From assembly GCF_046119375.1 (NCBI RefSeq), contig NW_027362769.1, forward strand, positions 414,718,001 through 414,782,000: a stretch of DNA of 64,000 nt, read 5' to 3'. Made by a program: the position numbers and the translations under genes. Source of the DNA: Phyllobates terribilis (taxonomy: Eukaryota). Positions 52,575 to 64,000 of the stretch are shown here, one piece after another. The notes under the pieces are model-generated. The model saw nothing but the letters and a program-made list of their open reading frames with translations. It searched no databases and was not told the origin of the DNA. The stretch's first letter is position 1. Each line of letters starts with the position of its first letter.

Positions 52575-52646
52575 CAACACTGGTCGCCATATCATCATCA
52601 ATTTATTTTTTCTTTACTTTTGAAAAAAATCCCATCACAACCCCAA

Positions 52647-52713
52647 CCCTAACCCTAACCCTAACCCTAACCCTAACCCTAGCCCTTCCCTAACCCTAGC
52701 ACAACCCTAACCC
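52647..52713. repeat. Short interstitial telomere-like (CCCTAA)n tract
   Basis: Five perfect CCCTAA at 52647-52676 followed by degenerate copies. Confidence 0.8.
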
Positions 52714-53324
52714 GAGAGTTTATTTTTTACGCCGTTCCTCGTGCTGTATAAGTGATTAGACGACCTTATTCTTCGGTTCGGTGCGATTACAGCAATGCCA
52801 GAATCATATGGGGTTTTTATGACTGACAGCTGTCACACACTAAGAGATGCTTTTTTTTTTGATGAGACTAGTTTTTGCATCGCCATATTTTGAGAGCTAT
52901 AATTTTTCCATATTTTGGCCGACAGTCATGTGACGGCTCGTTTTTTGCGGGATGAGTTGACGTTGTTATTGGTGCCATTTTCAGGCACGTGACATTTTTT
53001 GATCGCTTCATATTCCAATTTTTGAGAGGCAGAATAAACAAAAACCAACAATTCAGGAATTCTTTTTTATTCTGTTCCGCGTGTGGTAAAATTGATGAGG
53101 CAGCTTTATTCTTCGGATCAGTACGACTACAGCGGTACTTGATGTGACATCAGCGGATATCAGAGCCGGCTGCAGCCGGGGCCACATGGTGCCCAGTGTT
53201 CGATCAGCGATAGCGCCGCTCACAGCCACAAATGGCAATGGAAGTTATTTACAAAAGCATTTCTTTCCCCTGTTTAAATGAATGGGGACATTATTTATTG
53301 TAGTGGACGACCTCTTTAAAAGGG

Positions 53325-53575
53325 AGAAACGCAAGATTCTACATCTGGGCAAGAAAAACGAAATACAACTAAGCAACAGCACATGTGAAAAAGACTTGTG
53401 TATACTAATAGATCATAGACTGAACAGGAGTCAACAGTGTGATGCAGCAGCAAAAAAGGCAAATACAATTCTGGGATGTAGTAACAGAAGCATACAGTCT
53501 AGATCACGTGAAGTAATTATCCCCTCTACTCCTCCTTGGTCAGACCTCATCTGGATACTGTGTCCAGTTCTGGGA
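53325..53575 (+). mobile_element. CR1 LINE ORF2 fragment that seeds the 99-bp satellite
   Basis: KILHLGKKN...CEKDLCILIDHRLNRSQQCDAAAKKANTILGCSNRSIQSRSREVIIP(LYSSLVRPHL) is typical CR1 RT C-terminal sequence. Confidence 0.88.
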
Positions 53576-56500
53576 GGTATTAGGAGAAGCATAGAGTCTA
53601 GATCACATGAAGTAATTATCCCCTCTACTCCTCCTTGGTCAGATCTCATCTGGATACTGTGTCCAGTTCTGGGAGGTATTAGGAGAAGCATAGACTCTAG
53701 ATCACGTGAAGTCATTATCCCCCTCTACTCCTCCTTGGTCAGACCTCATCTGGATACTGTGTCCAGTTCTGGGAGGTATTAGGAGAAGCATAGAGTCTAG
53801 ATCATGTGAAGTAATTATCCCTCTACTCCTCCTTGGTCAGACCTCATCTGGATACTGTGCCCAGTTCTGGGAGGTATTAGGAGAAGCATAGAGTCTAGAT
53901 CACGTGAAGTAATTATCTCCCTCTACTCCTCCTTGGTCAGACCTCATCTGGATACTGTGTCCAGTTCTAGGAGGTATTAGGAGAAGCATAGAGTCTAGAT
54001 CATGTGAAGTAATTATCCCTCTACTCCTCCTTGGTCAGACCTCATCTGGATACTGTGCCCAGTTCTGGGAGGTATTAGGAGAAGCATAGAGTCTAGATCA
54101 CGTGAAGTAATTATCCCCTCTACTCCTCCTTGGTCAGACCTCATCTGGATACTGTGTCCAGTACTGGGAGGTATTAGGAGAAGCATAGAGTCTAGATCAC
54201 GTGAAGTAATTATCCCCCTCTACTCCTCCTTGGTCAGACCTCATCTGGATACTGTGCCCAGTTCTGGGAGGTATTAGGAGAAGCATAGAGTCTAGATCAC
54301 GTGAAGTAATTATCCCCCTCTACTCCTCCTTGGTCAGACCTCATCTGGATACTGTGTCCAGTTCTGGGAGGTATTAGGAGAAGCACAGAGTCTAGATCAC
54401 GTGAAGTAATTATCCTCCTCTACTCCTCCTTGGTCAGACCTCCTCTGGATACTGTGTCCAGTTCTGGGAGGTATTAGGAGAAGCACAGAGTCTAGATCAC
54501 ATGAAGTAATTATCCCCTCTACTCCGCCTTGGTCAGACCTCATCTGGATACTGTGTCCAGTTCTGGGAGGTATTAGGAGAAGCACAGAGTCTAGATCACG
54601 TGAAGTAATTATCTCCCTCTACTCCTCCTTGGTCAGACCTCATCTGTATACTGTGTCCAGTTCTGGGAGGTATTAGGAGAAGCACAGAGTCTAGATCACA
54701 TGAAGTAATTATCCCCTCTACTCCGCCTTGGTCAGACCTCATCTGGATACTGTGTCCAGTTCTGGGAGGTATTAGGAGAAGCATAGAGTCTAGATCACGT
54801 GAAGTCATTATCCCCCTCTACTCCTCCTTGGTCAGACCTCATCTGGATACTGTGTCCAGTTCTGGGAGGTATTAGGAGAAGCATAGAGTCTAGATCACGT
54901 GAAGTAATTATCCCTTCTACTCCTCCTTGGTCAGACCTCATCTGGATACTGTGTCCAGTTCTGGGAGGTATTAGGAGAAGCATAGAGTCTACATCACGTG
55001 AAGTAATTACCCCCATCTACTCCTCCTTGGTCAGATCTCATCTGGATACTGTGTCCAGTTCTGGGAGGTATTAGGAGAAGCACAGAGTCTAGATCACGTG
55101 AAGTAATTATCCTCCTCTACTCCTCCTTGGTCAGACCTCATCTGGATACTGTGTCCAGTTCTGGGAGGTATCAGGAGAAGCATAGAGTCTAGATCACGTG
55201 AAGTAATTATCCCTCTACTCCTTGGTCAGACCTCATCTGGATACTGTGTCCAGTTCTGGGAGGTATTAGGAGAAGCATAGAGTCTAGATCACGTGAAGTA
55301 ATTATCCCCTCTACTCCTCCTTGGTCAGACCTAATCTGGATACTGTGTCCAGTTCTGGGAGGTATTAGGAGAAGCATAGAGTCTAGATCATGTGAAGTCA
55401 TTATCCCCCTCTACTCCTCCTTGGTCAGACCTCATCTGGATACTGTGTCCAGTTCTGGGAGGTATTAGGAGAAGCATAGAGTCTAGATCACGTGAAGTCA
55501 TTATCCCCTCTACTCCTCCTTGGTCAGACCTCATCTGGATACTGTGTCCAGTTCTGGGAGGTATTAGGAGAAGCACAGAGTCTAGATCACGTGAAGTAAT
55601 TATCCTCCTCTACTCCTCCTTGGTCAGACCTCATCTGGATACTGTGTCCAGTTCTGGGAGGTATCAGGAGAAGCATAGAGTCTAGATCACGTGAAGTAAT
55701 TATCCCCCTCTACTCCTCCTTGGTCAGACCTCATCTGGATACTGTGTCCAGTTCTGGGAGGTATTAGGAGAAGCATAGAGTCTAGATCACTTGAAGTCAT
55801 TATCCCCCTCTACTCCTCTTTGGTCAGACCTCATCTGGATACTGTGTCCAGTTCTGGGAGGTATTAGGAGAAGCATAGAGTCTAGATCACGTGAAGTAAT
55901 TATCTCCCTCTACTCCTCCTTGATCAGACCTCATCTGGATACTGTGTCCAGTTCTGAGAGGTATTAGTAGAAGCATAGAGTCTAGATCACATGAAGTAAT
56001 TATCCCCTCTACTCCTCCTTGGTCAGACCTCATCTGGATACTGTGTCCAGTTCTGGGAGGTATTAGGAGAAGCATAGAGTCTAGATCACGTGAAGTCATT
56101 ATCGCACTTTACTCCTCTTTGGTCAGACCTCATCTGGATACTGTGTCCAGTTCTGGGAGGTATTAGGAGAAGCATAGAGTCTAGATCACGTGAAGTCATT
56201 ATCCCCCTCTACTCCTCCTTGGTCAGACCTCATCTGGATACTGTGTCCAGTTCTGGGAGGTATTAGGAGAAGAACAGAGTCTAGATCACGTGAAGTAATT
56301 ATCCTCCTCTACTCCTCCTTGGTCAGACCTCATCTGGATACTGTGTCCAGTTCTGGGAGGTATCAGGAGAAGCATAGAGTCTAGATCACGTGAAGTAATT
56401 ATCCCCCTCTACTCCTCCTTGGTCAGATCTCATCTGGATACTGTGTCCAGTTCTGGGAGGTATTAGGAGAAGCATAGAGTGTAGATCACGTGAAGTCATT

Positions 56501-56961
56501 ATCCCCTCTACTCCTCCTTGGTCAGGCCTCATCTGGATACTGTGTCCAGTTCTGGGAGGTATTAGGAGAAGCATAGAGTCTAGATCACGTGAAGTAATTA
56601 TCTCCCTCTACTCCTCCTTGGTCAGACCTCATCTGTATACTGTGTCCAGTTCTGGGAGGTATTAGGAGAAGCACAGAGTCTAGATCACATGAAGTAATTA
56701 TCCCCTCTACTCCTCCTTGGTCAGACCTCATCTGGATACTGTGTCCAGTTCTGGGAGGTATTAGGAGAAGCATAGAGTCTAGATCACGTGAAGTAATTAT
56801 CCCCCTCTACTCCTTCTTGGTCGGACCTCATCTGGATACTGTGTCCAGTTCTGGGAGGTATTAGGAGAAGCATAGAGTCTAGATCACGTGAAGTAATTAT
56901 CTCCCTCTACTCCTCCTTGGTCAGACCTCATCTGGATACTGTGTCCAGTTCTGAGAGGTAT
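53469..56961. repeat. 99-bp CR1-derived satellite, left block (~35 copies)
   Basis: Unit AGAGTCTAGATCACGTGAAGTAATTATCCCCTCTACTCCTCCTTGGTCAGACCTCATCTGGATACTGTGTCCAGTTCTGGGAGGTATTAGGAGAAGCAT, with small indel variants. Confidence 0.97.
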
Positions 56962-58033
56962 TGTAACGGGTCTGGGAGGCGGAACCTCTGAGCTACTATA
57001 CAAGGGGGCAGTCCTTGTAAGGGAGCGGGTGGCGACCAGGCAGGCAGTCACAGCAGGTGACCGGGACAGTCTCTGGAAGAACGGGCAGGAGATCACGGCA
57101 AGTGACTGGGGCAGTCTCTGGGTGAACGGGCAGGTGGTCACGGCAAGTGACCGGGGCAGTCTCTAGGTAAAGGGTTGGTACGACCTGTGGCGGCTGATGG
57201 TAGACTTGAGCTCCCAGGTGAGCAGGCGAGAGTCTCTGGATAAACGGGTGGTCACAGCATGTGACGGCGGAGCCTCCAGGAAGACCAACAGACAGGCGGC
57301 AGATGAGCGCTCCCAGGAGAGCGGGCAGAAGTCTCTGGACAGGCGGGTGGTCACAGCACGTGACGGCAGAGCCTCCAGGTAGGCTAGCAGACAGGCAGCA
57401 GATGAGCGCTCCCAGGTGAGCGAGCAGGAGTCACTGGACAGGCAGGTGGTCACAGCATGTGACGGCGGAGCCTCCAGGTAGACTAGCAGGCAGGTAGCAG
57501 GTGAGCGCTCCCAGGTAAGCGGGCAAGCTGGTCCATAGACAGACTGACGGGAGTAGGAAGGCAGACCGTCGGACCTCAGGCAAGCAGGCAGGTGGCTGGT
57601 GTGCGCTCCCAGGTGAGCGGGCAGGCTGGTCCTTAGACAGACTGACAGGAGTAGCAAGGCAGACCGTCGGACCTCAGACTAGCAGGCAGGTAGCAGATAA
57701 TCAGGCAGGAATCTGGCAGGTATCTGGCAGGTAACTGGCAACGGGACCTGAGGGCTAAAGCAGAGTAGTGAACAGTGCAACAACATTGCTCGGGCACCTC
57801 CATTTTGGAGGAGGTGCCTTATATATGGTAAAGTCCTCCGGCCATTGGCCGGGGACTCCTTAGGACGGCGCGCGCGGCCCCTTTAAGAGGGAGGGAGGGC
57901 GCGCGCCCTAAGCACAGTGGCCGGGAAGGAGCGCGCGCTGCCAGCAGAGCGGGAGAGGGACGCCGGGCACGGAGCAGAGCGGTGAGGGGAACAGCGTCCC
58001 TGCCTAGCAGAGGGCAGGGACGCCGGCACTACA
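56962..58033 (-). repeat. 3' LTR (1072 bp)
   Basis: TGTAACGGG...GGCACTACA; matches 62252-63175 apart from three indels and a few substitutions. Confidence 0.95.
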
Positions 58034-58062
58034 GTACCCCCCCCCCCCCTTTAGGCCCCCCC
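58034..58062 (-). other. Polypurine tract
   Basis: Minus strand GGGGGGGGCCTAAGGGGGGGGGGGGGTAC immediately precedes the 3' LTR. Confidence 0.85.
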
Positions 58063-61000
58063 TTTTTTAGGCCAGACAGAAATTTAGCTAGGATGAGAGG
58101 GGCATGGATGTTCTCCCGGGGCTACCACATTCTCTCCTCAGGACCAAACCCCTTCCAATCTACCAGAAAAAAGGTCTTTCCTCTTACCCTTTTGGTGGCA
58201 AGAATGTTCTCTACCTCAAACTCGTCCTCAGCAGAAACCGGAGCAGGAGGCGTACCTGTAGACTTGGAAAAAGAGTTAAGCACCACGGGTTTGAGGAGAG
58301 ATACATGGAAGGAGTTAGGGATCCGTAAGTTGGCCGGGAGTTTCAATTTATAGGCCACCGGGTTGATCTGACTGATGACCTCCAGAGGACCGATGAACCG
58401 AGGCCCTAACTTGTAAGAAGGTATCTTGAGTCGAACATATTTAGATGAGAGCCAGACTTTATCTCCTGGACGAAATTGTGGAGGATCCAGGCGTCTTTTG
58501 TCAGCGTGTCTTTTCATACGCTCGGATGACAGAAGGAGTGCGGACCGGGTACTCTCCCATATGGAGGAAAATTTGCTAACGAGAGATTCCGCAGCCGGGT
58601 TGTCCACAGAGGTGGAGACAGGAAAAGGAATCCGAGGATGCTGACCAAAGACTACAAAAAATGGGGATTTGGAGGAGGATTCGCTCTCGTGATTATTATA
58701 AGAGAACTCGGCCCATGGTAGGAGATCCACCCAGTCAGAATGGTGGGCATTAACGAAGTGCCGGAGGTAACTGGTCAGGTTCTGATTGATCCGCTCCACT
58801 TGACCATTGGACTGTGGGTGGTAAGCGGAAGAGAAGTCCAGGGTGACGTCTAGTAGTTTACAAGTGGCTCTCCAGAAACGTGAGGTAAACTGTACCCCAC
58901 GATCCGACACGATGTGGAGGGGCAGGCCATGAAGACGGAAGATGTGGCGGATAAAGTCTTTAGCCAGCTCGGGTGCAGACGGAAGGCCTGGCAGGGGAAT
59001 AAAGTGAGCCATCTTGGAAAAGCGGTCAGCGACCACCCAAATGACCGTACAACCGGCAGAGACGGGAAGATCTGTTATAAAGTCCATTGCTATATGCTGC
59101 CAGGGGGCAGCAGGTACAGGAAGCGGAAGGAGGCGTCCGGCTGGCAGATGTCTCGGGACTTTGTTGCGGGCGCAGGACACACAGGCGGAAACAAAGTCTA
59201 TTATGTCCTTGTGCAGGGTAGGCCACCAATAGTGCCGGGCAATAAGCTGGAGGGTCTTTTTCTGACCGGCGTGGCCAGCTAGTTTAGACGAATGGCCCCA
59301 GTGTAGGATCTTCTCCCGATCAGGTACTGAAACAAACGTCTTACCGGGAGGGAGACGATTTAGACTCACGGGAGCCACCTGCATTACTCTGGCGGGATCG
59401 ATGATGTGTTTCGGTTCTTCCTCGAGATCGGACACCAGAAAGGATCGGGACAAGGCGTCTGCTTTGACGTTTTTGTCAGCCGGGCGAAAATGAAGAACAA
59501 AATCAAAGCGAGCAAAAAACAAGGACCACCGGGCTTGGCGCGGGTTAAGTCTCTGGGCATGCTGGAGCTAAGCCAAGTTCTTGTGGTCAGTGTAAATTAT
59601 TACCGGATGAAGAGCCCCCTCGAGTAGGTAACGCCACTCCTCCAACGCCAGCTTGATGGCCAATAACTCTGGTCTCCTATGGAATAGTTGCGCTCAGAAG
59701 AGGAGAAGAGTTTGGAGAAGAAGCCACAAGTTACCATTCTCCCGGAAGATGATTTTTGAGTAAGTACCGCTCCGGCTCCAGAGGAGGAGGCGTCAACTTC
59801 CAGGAAGAACTGCTTGTTGCCGTCCGGGCGATGCAGCATCGGGGCGGAAGAGAAGGCCTGTTTTAGGGAAAGAAAGGCCTCCTCTGCTTCGGGCGGCCAC
59901 TCTTTGGGATTAGTACCCTTACGGGTGAGCGCGGAAATTGGGGCAGTCCGGGAAGAGAAGTGCGGGATGAAGAGGCGGTAATAGTTGGCGAAGCCCAGGA
60001 ACCGTTGAATAGCCTTCAACCCCTCTGGTCGGGGCCATTTCTCGATGGCAGACAGTTTCTCAGGATCCATTTGTAGGCCGGTCTGAGAGATAATGTAGCC
60101 CAGAAACGGAAGCGAGGTCTGCTCAAAGAGGCACTTCTCATATTTAGCGTAGAGATGGTTCTGCCTGAGCCTGAGCAGGACCTGACGAACATCCCTCCGG
60201 TGAGTCTGGAGATCCGGAGAGAAGACCAAGATGTCGTCCAGGTACACCACTACGCAGGAGTAGAGAAGGTCCCGGAAGATGTCATTGACCAACTCTTGAA
60301 AGACGGCAGGAGCGTTACAGAGGCCAAAGGGCATTACCAGATATTCATAGTGGCCGTCCCGGGTGTTGAATGCCGTCTTCCATTCATCCCCCTGACGGAT
60401 ACGAACCAGGTTGTAAGCCCCACGGAGGTCCAGTTTGGTGAAGATTCTAGCCCCTCTCAGACGATCAAATAACTCCGGAATGAGCGGAAGGGGGTACTTA
60501 TTTTTCACCGTGATCTGGTTAAGGCCTCTATAGTCTATACAGGGACGGAGAGAGACGTCCTTCTTTTTTACGAAGAAGAAGCCTGCTCCCGCCGGGGAGG
60601 TAGACTTCCGGATGAATCCCCTGGCCAGATTCTCCTCAATATATTCGGACATCGACCGGGTCTCAGCAGCGGATAATGGATAAATACGCCCACGGGGAGG
60701 AGTAGTACCGGGTAACAAGTCGATAGGGCAGTCGTATGGTCTATGAGGGGGTAGTGTCTCTGCTTCCTTTTTATTAAAGACATCAGCATAAGACCAATAA
60801 GGAATCGGAAGTCCAGGTAGATTAGCTGGGGTAGGAGAAGGACGGACGGGATGGACGGGAACCAGACAGGTCTTATGGCAGTCCTGTCCCCAGCGAAGGA
60901 CTTCTCCGGTCTGCCAGTCAAGCACGGGTGCATGTCTCTGGAGCCAAGGTAGACCTAGCAGGAGGGCGTGAGAGAGTCCAGGCAGAACATGAAAGGAGAT

Positions 61001-61306
61001 ACTCTCAGAATGCAGCATTCCCACTTGCAGAGTAATGGATTCGGTGATGAGTTGAATGGGGCGTGGTAAGAGACCCCCATCCACGGCAGCAACAGACAAG
61101 GGTACAGCCAGAGGTTTGGTGGGGATGCGGTACTTCTCTACCAGGGACTGTGAAATAAGATTCCCGGCTGCTCCAGAGTCCAGTTGGGCTAGTTCGAAAT
61201 AACGGTTCTCCCCGCAGACGATTGAAACTGACAGCAGCAGAGATGGAGAGGATTTATTCTTGTCTAGGTCGACCTCTCTGAGCGAACCTAGACACAGGCG
61301 TTTCCC
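58050..61306 (-). pseudogene. pol (protease, RT, RNase H, integrase, chromodomain), disrupted
   Basis: PR LDSGAAGN; RT VVVYLDDILVFS; IN HHCC and DDE (MDFITDLP, SDRGVQF, QVERINQ); GPF-like GPRFIGP; chromodomain EFEVENIL..FLVDWKGFGPEERMW. Lesions: 1-nt deletion near 59670, TAG at 59568-59570, TAG at 58122-58124. Natural TAA at 58050-58052. Confidence 0.93.
61246..61306 (-). promoter_or_regulatory. -1 ribosomal frameshift signal (slippery heptamer plus predicted pseudoknot)
   Basis: G GGA AAC at 61306-61300 in gag frame; stem TGTCTAGGT/ACCTAGACA 5 nt downstream; loop GAGAGG pairs with CCTCTC; the -1 frame is open into the protease. Confidence 0.8.
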
Positions 61307-62238
61307 GACCTCTCTGGGCAGGCACGGATCCGGTGCTCCTTACTGCCACAGTAGAAGCAGCTCCCCTCGGCACGGCGTAAGTCCTGACGGGTTTTGACCA
61401 TCTTGGTCTGGTCGACCTGCATAGGCTCAGGAGAGTGTACCTGGGGAGAGACGGAGGGAGTGACGGGTTTCTGAAAAGTAGGAGCTAGACGTGGAAACCT
61501 CCTCTCACGGGTGACCTCTTTGGCACGCTCCTGGAACCGTAGGTCAATCCGGGTTGCAAGAGTTATTAGGTCGTCGAGAGTGGTAGGAACGTCCCGACCG
61601 GCAAGTTCATCTTTAATACGGCCGGACAGACCCTCCCAGAAGACGGATACCAGAGCGTCGTTATCCCAGGCCAGCTCCGAGGCAAGGGTACGGAACCGTA
61701 TGGCATATTGGCCCACGGTGAGACTTCCCTGACGGAGGCGTAGCAGAGACGATGCGGATGAGGTCTTCCGTCCGGGTTCATCGAAGACTTTCCGGAAAGC
61801 CGTGAGGAAGGCAGGCAGGTCGGACACCAGGGGGTCTCCTCTCTCCCATAGAGGATTTAGCCAGGCCAGGGCCTCCCCGGTGAGATGGAACATGATGAAG
61901 GCAATTTTGGCCCGGTCGGAGTTAAACTGGTGGGACAATAGTTCAAAGTGCAGGGTGCACTGATTAAAGAAGCCCCGAGCCTGGGCGGGGTCGCCTCCGA
62001 AGCAAGGAGGTGCAGAAAGCCGGGGTCCGGGGTAGGATACCATGGTATTGGTGGGCAGCGGAGCTGCCGGGTTGCGAGTCATGGCACTGGCGGTGGTTGC
62101 TGGTGGAGCAGTCAGAGTGTCCAGGCGAGAATTGACATTCCGCAGGTGACCCAGGATGGACTCCTGTTGGGACCTCTGACGGGACAGTTCATGACAGAGG
62201 TCCGAGAGCGAGGGAGCTTGGGTGCCACCGGGTTCCAA
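61288..62238 (-). CDS. gag with CCHC zinc knuckle (316 aa if initiated at TTG)
   Basis: Open frame; PPCFGGDP..GFFNQC capsid-like motif as in sushi/PEG10-type gags; CFYCGSKEHRIRAC. First codon is TTG; first ATG at 62082. Confidence 0.85.
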   Translation of the reverse strand: MEPGGTQAPSLSDLCHELSRQRSQQESILGHLRNVNSRLDTLTAPPATTASAMTRNPAAPLPTNTMVSYPGPRLSAPPCFGGDPAQARGFFNQCTLHFELLSHQFNSDRAKIAFIMFHLTGEALAWLNPLWERGDPLVSDLPAFLTAFRKVFDEPGRKTSSASSLLRLRQGSLTVGQYAIRFRTLASELAWDNDALVSVFWEGLSGRIKDELAGRDVPTTLDDLITLATRIDLRFQERAKEVTRERRFPRLAPTFQKPVTPSVSPQVHSPEPMQVDQTKMVKTRQDLRRAEGSCFYCGSKEHRIRACPERSGNACV

Positions 62239-62239
62239 G

Positions 62240-62249
62240 GCCCGAGCAA
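62240..62249 (-). other. Self-priming primer-binding site (non-tRNA)
   Basis: Minus strand TTGCTCGGGC, 2 nt from the 5' LTR end, is complementary to GCCCGAGCAA at 62987-62978, which begins 31 nt downstream of TATATAAG. Confidence 0.8.
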
Positions 62250-62251
62250 AC

Positions 62252-63175
62252 TGTAACGGGTCTGGGAGGCGGAACCTCTGAGCTACTATACAAGGGGGCA
62301 GTCCTTGTAAGGGAGCGGGTGGCGACCAGGCAGGCAGTCACAGCAGGTGACCGGGACAGTCTCTGGAAGAACGGGCAGGAGATCACGGCAAGTGACTGGG
62401 GCAGTCTCTGGGTGAACGGGCAGGTGGTCACGGCAAGTGACCGGGGCAGTCTCTAGGTAAAGGGTTGGTACGACCTGTGGCGGCTGATGGTAGACTTGAG
62501 CTCCCAGGTGAGCAGGCGAGAGTCTCTGGATAAACGGGTGGTCACAGCATGTGACGGCGGAGCCTCCAGGAAGACCAACAGACAGGCGGCAGATGAGCGC
62601 TCCCAGGAGAGCGGGCAGAAGTCTCTGGACAGGCGGGTGGTCACAGCACGTGACGGCAGAGCCTCCAGCTAGGCTAGCAGACAGGCAGCAGATGAGCGCT
62701 CCCAGGTGAGCGAGCAGGAGTCACTGGACAGGCAGGTGGTCACAGCATGTGACGGCGGAGCCTCCAGGTAGACTAGCAGGCAGGTAGCAGGTGAGCGCTC
62801 CCAGGTAAGCGGGCAAGCTGGTCCATAGACAGACTGACGGGAGTAGGAAGGCAGACCGTCGGACCTCAGGCTAGCAGGCAGGTAGCAGATAATCAGGCAG
62901 GAATCTGGCAGGTATCTGGCAGGTAACTGGCAACGGGACCTGAGGGCTGAAGCAGAGTAGTGAACAGTGCAACAACATTGCTCGGGCACCTCCAATTTTG
63001 GAGGAGGGGCCTTATATATGGTAAAGTCCTCCGGCCATTGGCGCGCGCCCTAAGCACAGTAGCCGGGAAGGAGCGCGCGCTGCCAGCAGAGCGGGAGAGG
63101 GACGCCGGGCACGGAGCAGAGCGGTGAGGGGAACAGCGTCCCTGCCTAGCAGAGGGCAGGGACGCCGGCACTACA
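62252..63175 (-). repeat. 5' LTR (924 bp) with TATA box (63018-63011) and CCAAT
   Basis: Same termini as the 3' LTR; lacks one 98-bp internal repeat and a 51-bp U3 segment. Confidence 0.95.
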
Positions 63176-64000
63176 GGTATTAGTAGAAGCATAGAGTCTA
63201 GATCACGTGAAGTAATTACCCCCTCTACTCCTCCTTAGTCAGACCTCATCTGGATACTGTGTCCAGTTCTGGGAGGTATTAGGAGAAGCATAGAGTCTAG
63301 ATCACATGAAGTAATTATCCCCTCTACTCCTCCTTGGTCAGACCTCATCTGGATACTGTGTCCAGTTCTGGGAGGTATTAGGAGAAGCATAGAGTCTAGA
63401 TCACGTGAAGTCATTATCCCCTCTACTCCTCCTTGGTCAGACCTCATCTGGATACTGTGTCCAGTTCTGGGAGGTATTAGGAGAAGCACAGAGTCTAGAT
63501 CACATGAAGTAATTATCCTCCTCTACTCCTCCTTGGTCAGACCTCATCTGGATACTGTGTCCAGTTCTGGGAGGTATCAGGAGAAGCATAGAGTCTAGAT
63601 CACGTGAAGTAATTATCACTCTACTCCTTGGTCAGACCTCATCTGGATACTGTGTCCAGTTCTGGGAGGTATTAGAAGAAGAATAGAGTCTAGATCACGT
63701 GAAGTAATTATCCCCTCTACTCCTCCTTGGTCAGACCTAATCTGGATACTGTGTCCAGTTCTGGGAGGTATTAGGAGAAGCATAGAGTCTAGATCATGTG
63801 AAGTCATTATCCCCCTCTACTCCTTGGTCAGACCTCATCTGGATACTGTGTCCAGTTCTGGGAGGTATTAGGAGAAGCATAGAGTCTAGATCACGTGAAG
63901 TAATTATCCCCTCTACTCCTCCTTGGTCAGACCTCATCTGGATACTGTGTCCAGTTCTGGGAGGTATTAGGAGAAGCACAGAGTCTAGATCACATGAAGT
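63176..64000. repeat. 99-bp CR1-derived satellite, right block (continues beyond window)
   Basis: Same unit as 53469-56961; resumes in register after the TSD. Confidence 0.97.

Follow-up and report, generated by a model that had tools for sequence, protein, structure and literature searches.

The minus strand of the window (the whole stretch of 64,000 nt from Phyllobates terribilis analysed here) carries a Ty3/gypsy chromovirus of an abundant vertebrate kind, in a decayed copy, and the lineage to which it belongs likely primes reverse transcription in the manner of Tf1, with the ten bases predicted to come first in its own transcript; we put the probability of this reading at about 0.88. Self-priming of the Tf1/sushi type, rather than from a tRNA, had been proposed in an initial annotation of this DNA, and it is supported by covariation between primer and primer binding site (PBS) and by the anatomy of the Tf1/sushi group, the start site being a predicted one.

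Anatomy of the element and its surroundings

The minus-strand element retains a full layout, with a pair of LTRs and a 5-bp target site duplication (TSD), ATACC, at 63176 to 63180 on the 5' side and 56957 to 56961 on the 3' side. By LTR alignment, the 5' LTR (TG...CA, 924 nt) occupies 62252 to 63175 and the 3' LTR (1072 nt) occupies 56962 to 58033; relative to the latter, the 5' LTR is shorter by 51 nt within U3 and by a single internal repeat unit of 98 nt. Near identity of the two LTRs (4 substitutions in 923 aligned columns, plus three indels) suggests a young insertion. A polypurine tract lies at 58037 to 58052. The gag region (61288 to 62238) matches the Pfam families Retrotrans_gag, Ty3_capsid and DUF4939 and contains a CCHC zinc knuckle of the form C-X2-C-X4-H-X4-C; its sole PDB match is PEG10 (7lga, E 1.2e-8). 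The pol region (58122 to 61339) encodes, by Pfam, protease, reverse transcriptase (RT), RNase H, integrase, an SH3 domain (SH3_Tf2-1) and a chromodomain, and its top PDB match is Ty3 (E 3.5e-71). The chromodomain, at the integrase's C-terminal end, matches PF00385 with an E-value of 3.7e-5 and 24 bits, the cut-off being 25.1, over profile positions 1-33 of 53, where a premature stop ends the match. The TG..CA LTRs, 5-bp TSD, polypurine tract, gene order gag-PR-RT-RH-IN and C-terminal chromodomain are together those of a chromovirus. The copy is damaged: the gag start is not intact, pol has a frame break and a stop near 59570-59600, and the chromodomain stop falls at 58122-58124.

The gag and pol frames overlap at the heptamer GGGAAAC (61300 to 61306), a candidate -1 frameshift site and putative slippery sequence; this overlap and the CCHC-bearing gag are as in the vertebrate V-clade (sushi-like) elements. 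According to the accessible text of bioRxiv 10.1101/2022.12.06.519325, -1 frameshifting is typical of the Tf1/sushi group. The PEG10 match and DUF4939 lend indirect support to a possible V-clade affinity with the Sushi-ichi/Amn elements. Among the window LTRs and loci L046, L049 and L066, neither AATAAA nor ATTAAA occurs in the 3' LTR of the family to which the window LTRs belong (family A) or of a distant clade, and a second family (family B) has one such signal, 30-31 nt ahead of the LTR end.

The element is inserted in a satellite with a 99-100-bp repeat unit, with 35 copies on one side and more than 8 on the other. This satellite spans 53282-56962 and 63175-64000 of the window and continues a reading frame at 53282-53782 that may resemble the C-terminus of ORF2 from a CR1 LINE. 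It looks like a LINE fragment that was amplified in tandem and later hit by the LTR element. A short telomere-like interstitial tract, (AACCCT)n with 12.8 copies, lies at 52639-52713.

The primer binding site and its complement

Past the terminal CA of the 5' LTR (62252) comes a 2-nt spacer, GT (62250 to 62251), which mirrors the 2 nt preceding the 3' LTR, and then a PBS without TGG, TTGCTCGGGC (62240 to 62249). The exact complement of this PBS occurs once in each LTR. The copy at 62987-62978 in the 5' LTR is the predicted self-primer, corresponding to predicted RNA nucleotides 1-10 and beginning with a +1 G after a pyrimidine; the second copy lies at 57795-57786 in the 3' LTR. The initial annotation had described a non-TGG PBS with a perfect 10-nt complement in both LTRs, and we reproduced all of its coordinates on the minus strand. 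It had also placed the primer 31 nt past the TATA box of the 5' LTR (TATATAA, 63012 to 63018). We obtain the same distance, measured from the first T at 63018; for the 3' LTR it is 30 nt.

The match is unlikely to have arisen by chance. When the LTR was resampled 20,000 times under a Markov model, with five 10-mers tested after the LTR end, a 10-nt match appeared anywhere in the LTR with a probability of 0.0032, and within the 30 nt beginning 20 nt past the TATA box with a probability of 0.00005.

Covariation across families

Using SH3, RT-motif and DUF4939 searches of the genome, we fetched 80 stretches of 9-10 kb, and fixed LTR ends by alignment of the LTR pair, independently of any complementarity. 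Fourteen of the 80 loci could be fully delimited, with an LTR pair and a 5-bp TSD; 11 had a pair and no TSD, 12 an unresolved end, 37 no pair and 6 no RT. The top SH3_Tf2-1 scores in these searches all fell on small unplaced contigs (C3181-C7643), above the chromosomal matches, and these contigs may be foreign DNA in the assembly.

Primer and PBS covary strongly. Of the 14 TSD-validated relatives, thirteen match one or both of their own LTRs at 10 of 10 positions (11 when the 5' LTR is taken by itself), and the remaining one matches at 9 of 10 plus a G·U pair. Among the controls, 10 of 10 was reached neither in 156 cross-family pairings in which the PBS was a different one nor in 266 other leader 10-mers. 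The 11 loci with an LTR pair and no TSD gave three matches at 10 of 10, three at 9 of 10 and five at 7 of 10 or below; in this last group the ends are doubtful for four and the PBS is scrambled in the other. A gag-anchored pass, overlapping the no-TSD set, found a candidate PBS in 27 loci, of which 14 matched at 10 of 10, two at 9, eight at 8 and three at 7.

Eight distinct primer/PBS sequences are perfectly matched, in elements whose RT identity to the window copy falls to about 60%. On an RT tree of 18 rows, with three main clades, pair 1 is always G-C and pair 2 is C-G in all but two decayed copies, while each of pairs 3-10 takes two or three Watson-Crick forms. The duplex is 11 bp in two of the 14 relatives and 10 bp otherwise, and the spacer from LTR end to PBS is 2 nt in all 15 TSD-validated elements. 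A distant family includes many copies (C18, C20, C83, C137 and others) with open frames of about 1499 aa; its three sampled copies (L169-L171) have LTRs 99.9-100% identical, suggesting that this family is very young.

Covariation within the window family

A variant of the PBS at pair 9 has 132 matches in the genome, and the matching primer variant has 365. We fetched 24 variant-PBS loci, 22 with A and two with G at this position. The compensating primer base is present in 17 of the 22 A-variant loci and lacking in four, with one unparsed; both G-variant loci retain the common primer. All ten common-PBS loci carry the common primer, and none has the compensating base. Sampled in reverse, from 40 variant-primer LTRs, a PBS was found behind nine, seven of them compensated (four already among the variant-PBS loci), one with a wobble pair and one with a mismatch; 26 of the 40 are solo LTRs or 3' copies. 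Since the 17 compensated loci all carry one TATA variant, the compensation within this family probably reflects a single event, later amplified. In L191/L192 (G000:C1:524913957-524922271), both LTRs have the variant primer and the PBS is of the common type, a pair-9 mismatch apparently present since insertion. Compensatory changes linking primer and PBS, which the initial annotation had proposed to look for, are seen among the relatives both across families and within that of the window copy.

A host primer

A different explanation is that a host tRNA fragment or small RNA primes synthesis and that the match to the LTR is a by-product. Half-tRNA primers are known in some copia lineages (PMC6317226, in its accessible part), and the tRNA set that we screened was incomplete and consisted mainly of tRNA-Lys(TTT): a genome search with RF00005 gave 63 matches out of about 379,000 candidates, and ARAGORN, run on the fetched loci, gave 21 distinct sequences, 19 of them tRNA-Lys(TTT). 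Large tandem arrays of tRNA genes lie at G000:C1:817.2-817.9 Mb, with a spacing of about 1.05 kb, and at C11:574-575.8 Mb, and the members that we fetched from these arrays are tRNA-Lys(TTT). We nevertheless judge a host primer extremely improbable. The PBS is without TGG, and no TGG follows the LTR in any of the 15 TSD-validated elements, as it should in elements primed by a tRNA. Each of the eight PBS types is matched by its own LTR alone, so that eight host primers and eight coincidences would be needed. Against the retrieved tRNAs, mainly tRNA-Lys(TTT), the longest tRNA-Lys match was 5 nt; a genome-wide pattern search for the primer 5-35 nt ahead of a T-loop motif gave 50 matches, mostly LTR-like, with no ARAGORN tRNA among the 30 fetched; and an Rfam scan of the element gave no matches.

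The predicted start of the RNA

For the self-primer to be the end of the transcript, RNA polymerase II would have to start at the G at 62987, about 30 nt past the TATA box. The same sequences might instead prime without being the capped 5' end, either because transcription starts upstream or because the primer acts in trans (from solo LTRs or the 3' copy of R) after a second cut. Tf2 does have alternative start sites, as described in the accessible text of PMC5341516, and many LTRs of this family are solo or 3' copies, as seen above for the variant-primer LTRs (26/40). We consider this arrangement improbable all the same, as an AT-rich box about 30 nt upstream of the primer and a pyrimidine-G at -1/+1 are present in 15 of 15 TSD-validated elements, and Watson-Crick pairing with the PBS region stops at +1, with none upstream of it in any of the 15. 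The depth of read contigs over the LTR, from seven runs of unrecorded type, has no step at the predicted +1, contigs being unable to show a start. The ratio of contig depth in R (57716-57755) to that in U3 (57836-57875) amounts to 4-5 for three runs from a single study, their types unrecorded, and to 0.26 in a single run guessed to be RNA, its type likewise unrecorded; we gave these depths no weight.

Loop, hairpin and leader structure

The arms of the duplex are separated by a loop of 728 nt in the window copy, close to the 735 nt or so given in the initial annotation. Its description as unusually long does not hold, since loops measure 405-769 nt in the 14 relatives and 488-1148 nt in 33 parsed loci of the same family. 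Another remark of the annotation, that a hairpin between TATA box and start is intact only in the 3' LTR, is correct for the window copy: the 9-bp hairpin at the end of U3 is intact at 57818-57793, and its counterpart at 62985 to 63011 is damaged by a substitution at 63008 and an extra T at about 62997. As a feature of the family it fails, since 92 of the 105 LTR contexts examined from this family have a perfect stem (four further contexts were set aside) and the 5' damage is private to this copy; we rejected a 3'-LTR-only hairpin as a design on this count. The U3 regions of both progeny LTRs are copied from one template, and such an asymmetry therefore cannot be inherited.

The stem at the end of U3 is retained in the diverged locus L116 despite full replacement of its loop; family B has a shorter, altered and weaker form (z -1.1 to -1.8), and the distant clade lacks the stem. 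Within the RNA, the hairpin might mask the 3' primer copy; alternatively, promoter motifs might have given rise to it as a by-product. A putative YY1-like motif occupies the same place in families A and B (57804-57797 of the window; L041 and L049), between about -12 and -2 relative to the predicted start. This motif could fix the exact start needed for self-priming, and could also account for the right arm of the hairpin. A version of self-priming peculiar to vertebrate sushi-type elements might be imagined, with a 10-nt primer that always begins with GC, a spacer of 2 nt that integrase trims, and a clade-specific U3-end hairpin, present only at the 3' end of the RNA, that keeps the second primer copy off the PBS; we regard this combination as rather unlikely.

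Further pairing around the PBS is less clear. A possible U5-leader stem joins a U5 arm at 62270 to 62276 with a leader arm at 62231 to 62237, the latter overlapping the position at which gag starts in same-family relatives. This stem is not above shuffled sequences in the window family (p 0.08-0.31) or in family B (p 0.08-0.54); in the distant clade it is above shuffles in five of five loci (p 0.004-0.046), with visible compensatory changes. A duplex between the post-primer region and the U5 end is significant in two of 14 elements. Neither of the two flanking duplexes corresponding to the Tf1 "pretzel" exceeds shuffles in the window family (p 0.08-0.87), and a cross-family energy control gave no specificity for the flanking duplexes. 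When the whole leader is folded, the primer duplex has a predicted probability of about 0.5 in the window copy; over 12 elements the values run from 0.0 to 1.0, with 0.0 in two and 0.1 or less in three. Such modelling leaves the primer duplex neither confirmed nor excluded, and the structural results around it add no support to self-priming. In the same-family loci L052, L059 and L075, gag starts one base past the PBS (window 62238), within the possible U5-leader stem, an arrangement that recalls the retroviral U5-AUG helix.

A model for priming

Given a start at 62987, RNA bases 1-10 would be able to pair with the PBS across a loop of 400-800 nt, as the sequences and their covariation indicate. 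By analogy with Tf1, the RNase H of the element would then cut beside the duplex, most likely after base 10, freeing a 3'-OH, and RT would extend this primer across the spacer of 2 nt and on through U5 and R. A cDNA end of CA-GT, equal to the opposite one, would result, with two bases to be removed by integrase. Members of the window family do have CA-GT at both ends, and the 2-nt spacer is likely the dinucleotide that integrase trims, a role drawn from retroviral integrase biology.

Covariation demonstrates pairing rather than priming, and the pairing could be real and selected for dimerisation, packaging or control of the gag start (which in same-family relatives is one base behind the PBS), with priming accomplished by other means. 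This we find very improbable, in that the 3' arm sits at the site of primer annealing, 2 nt past the CA of the LTR, in 15 of 15 elements, the 5' arm starts at the predicted RNA start, and there is no alternative primer site. An identical layout has been proven to prime in Tf1, according to the accessible portions of PMC4600332 and PMC7175516. Weighing against self-priming itself are the four uncompensated variant-PBS loci, the mismatch in L191/L192, the five of 11 no-TSD loci at 7 of 10 or below, the probable single origin of the compensation within the family, the uneven folding probabilities of the duplex, the flanking duplexes that do not exceed shuffles in this family, and the full delimitation of 14 loci out of 80. 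We still favor self-priming from the predicted 5' end.

Comparison with known systems

Butler et al. are said to have predicted self-priming for vertebrate elements as early as 2001. It is a common feature of the Tf1/sushi group, vertebrate members included, according to the accessible parts of bioRxiv 10.1101/2022.12.06.519325 and PMC6317226. Self-priming would therefore be expected in an element with this anatomy, and the initial annotation overrated its novelty, the feature being known for the group, the loop normal and the hairpin decay private. In the openly searchable literature (subscription papers being outside its scope) we found no experimental test of self-priming in a vertebrate element, and the supplements of 10.1101/2022.12.06.519325 may show vertebrate examples; a literature search likewise found no paper on chromovirus self-priming in Xenopus or amphibian gypsy elements. 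The general picture of how LTR elements are primed is unchanged. What this genome offers is unusually good natural covariation data, in a dense series within one genome. The exact 18-nt junction of LTR end and PBS has 18,451 copies in 10.6 Gb, and with over 18,000 PBS junctions in the family, the prediction could be tested by one 5'-end sequencing experiment on host tissue.

Self-priming has also been predicted, via complementarity between PBS and LTR, for the plant Tcn1 clade and for TAR copia elements (PMC6317226, in its accessible part). Unlike the window element, Tcn1 and TAR belong to other hosts and lineages, TAR being a Ty1/copia element. Closer are Tf1 and Tf2 of Schizosaccharomyces pombe, along with Tj1, Tosmo1-3 and Tcry1, which like the window element are chromoviruses with a PBS that complements the 5' end of their own RNA (in our case the predicted end) and with no tRNA involved. 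The self-primer of Tf1 consists of the initial 11 bases, which anneal to the PBS and are separated from base 12 by an RNase H cut, as set out in the accessible text of PMC7175516; PMC4600332 and PMC5341516, in the parts available, likewise cover the Tf1 self-primer. In contrast to these 11 bp, the duplex here measures 10 bp and lies a constant 2 nt past the LTR, and the predicted loop is 400-800 nt long and filled with repeats. Tf1 requires a "pretzel" of three duplexes around the PBS (bioRxiv 10.1101/2022.12.06.519325, accessible text), whereas the flanking duplexes are not clearly demonstrable in the window family. The gag CCHC knuckle is present here, and the fission-yeast elements are without one, according to the same portion of that preprint. 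The window element resembles the vertebrate sushi-type chromoviruses (V-clade) in its CCHC gag, gag/pol overlap and PEG10-like capsid, and may share a family with Amn-san or another of them. In sushi LTRs an AT-rich box comes early and AATAAA lies close to the 3' end (PMC3601003, in its accessible part), a layout that fits a long R.
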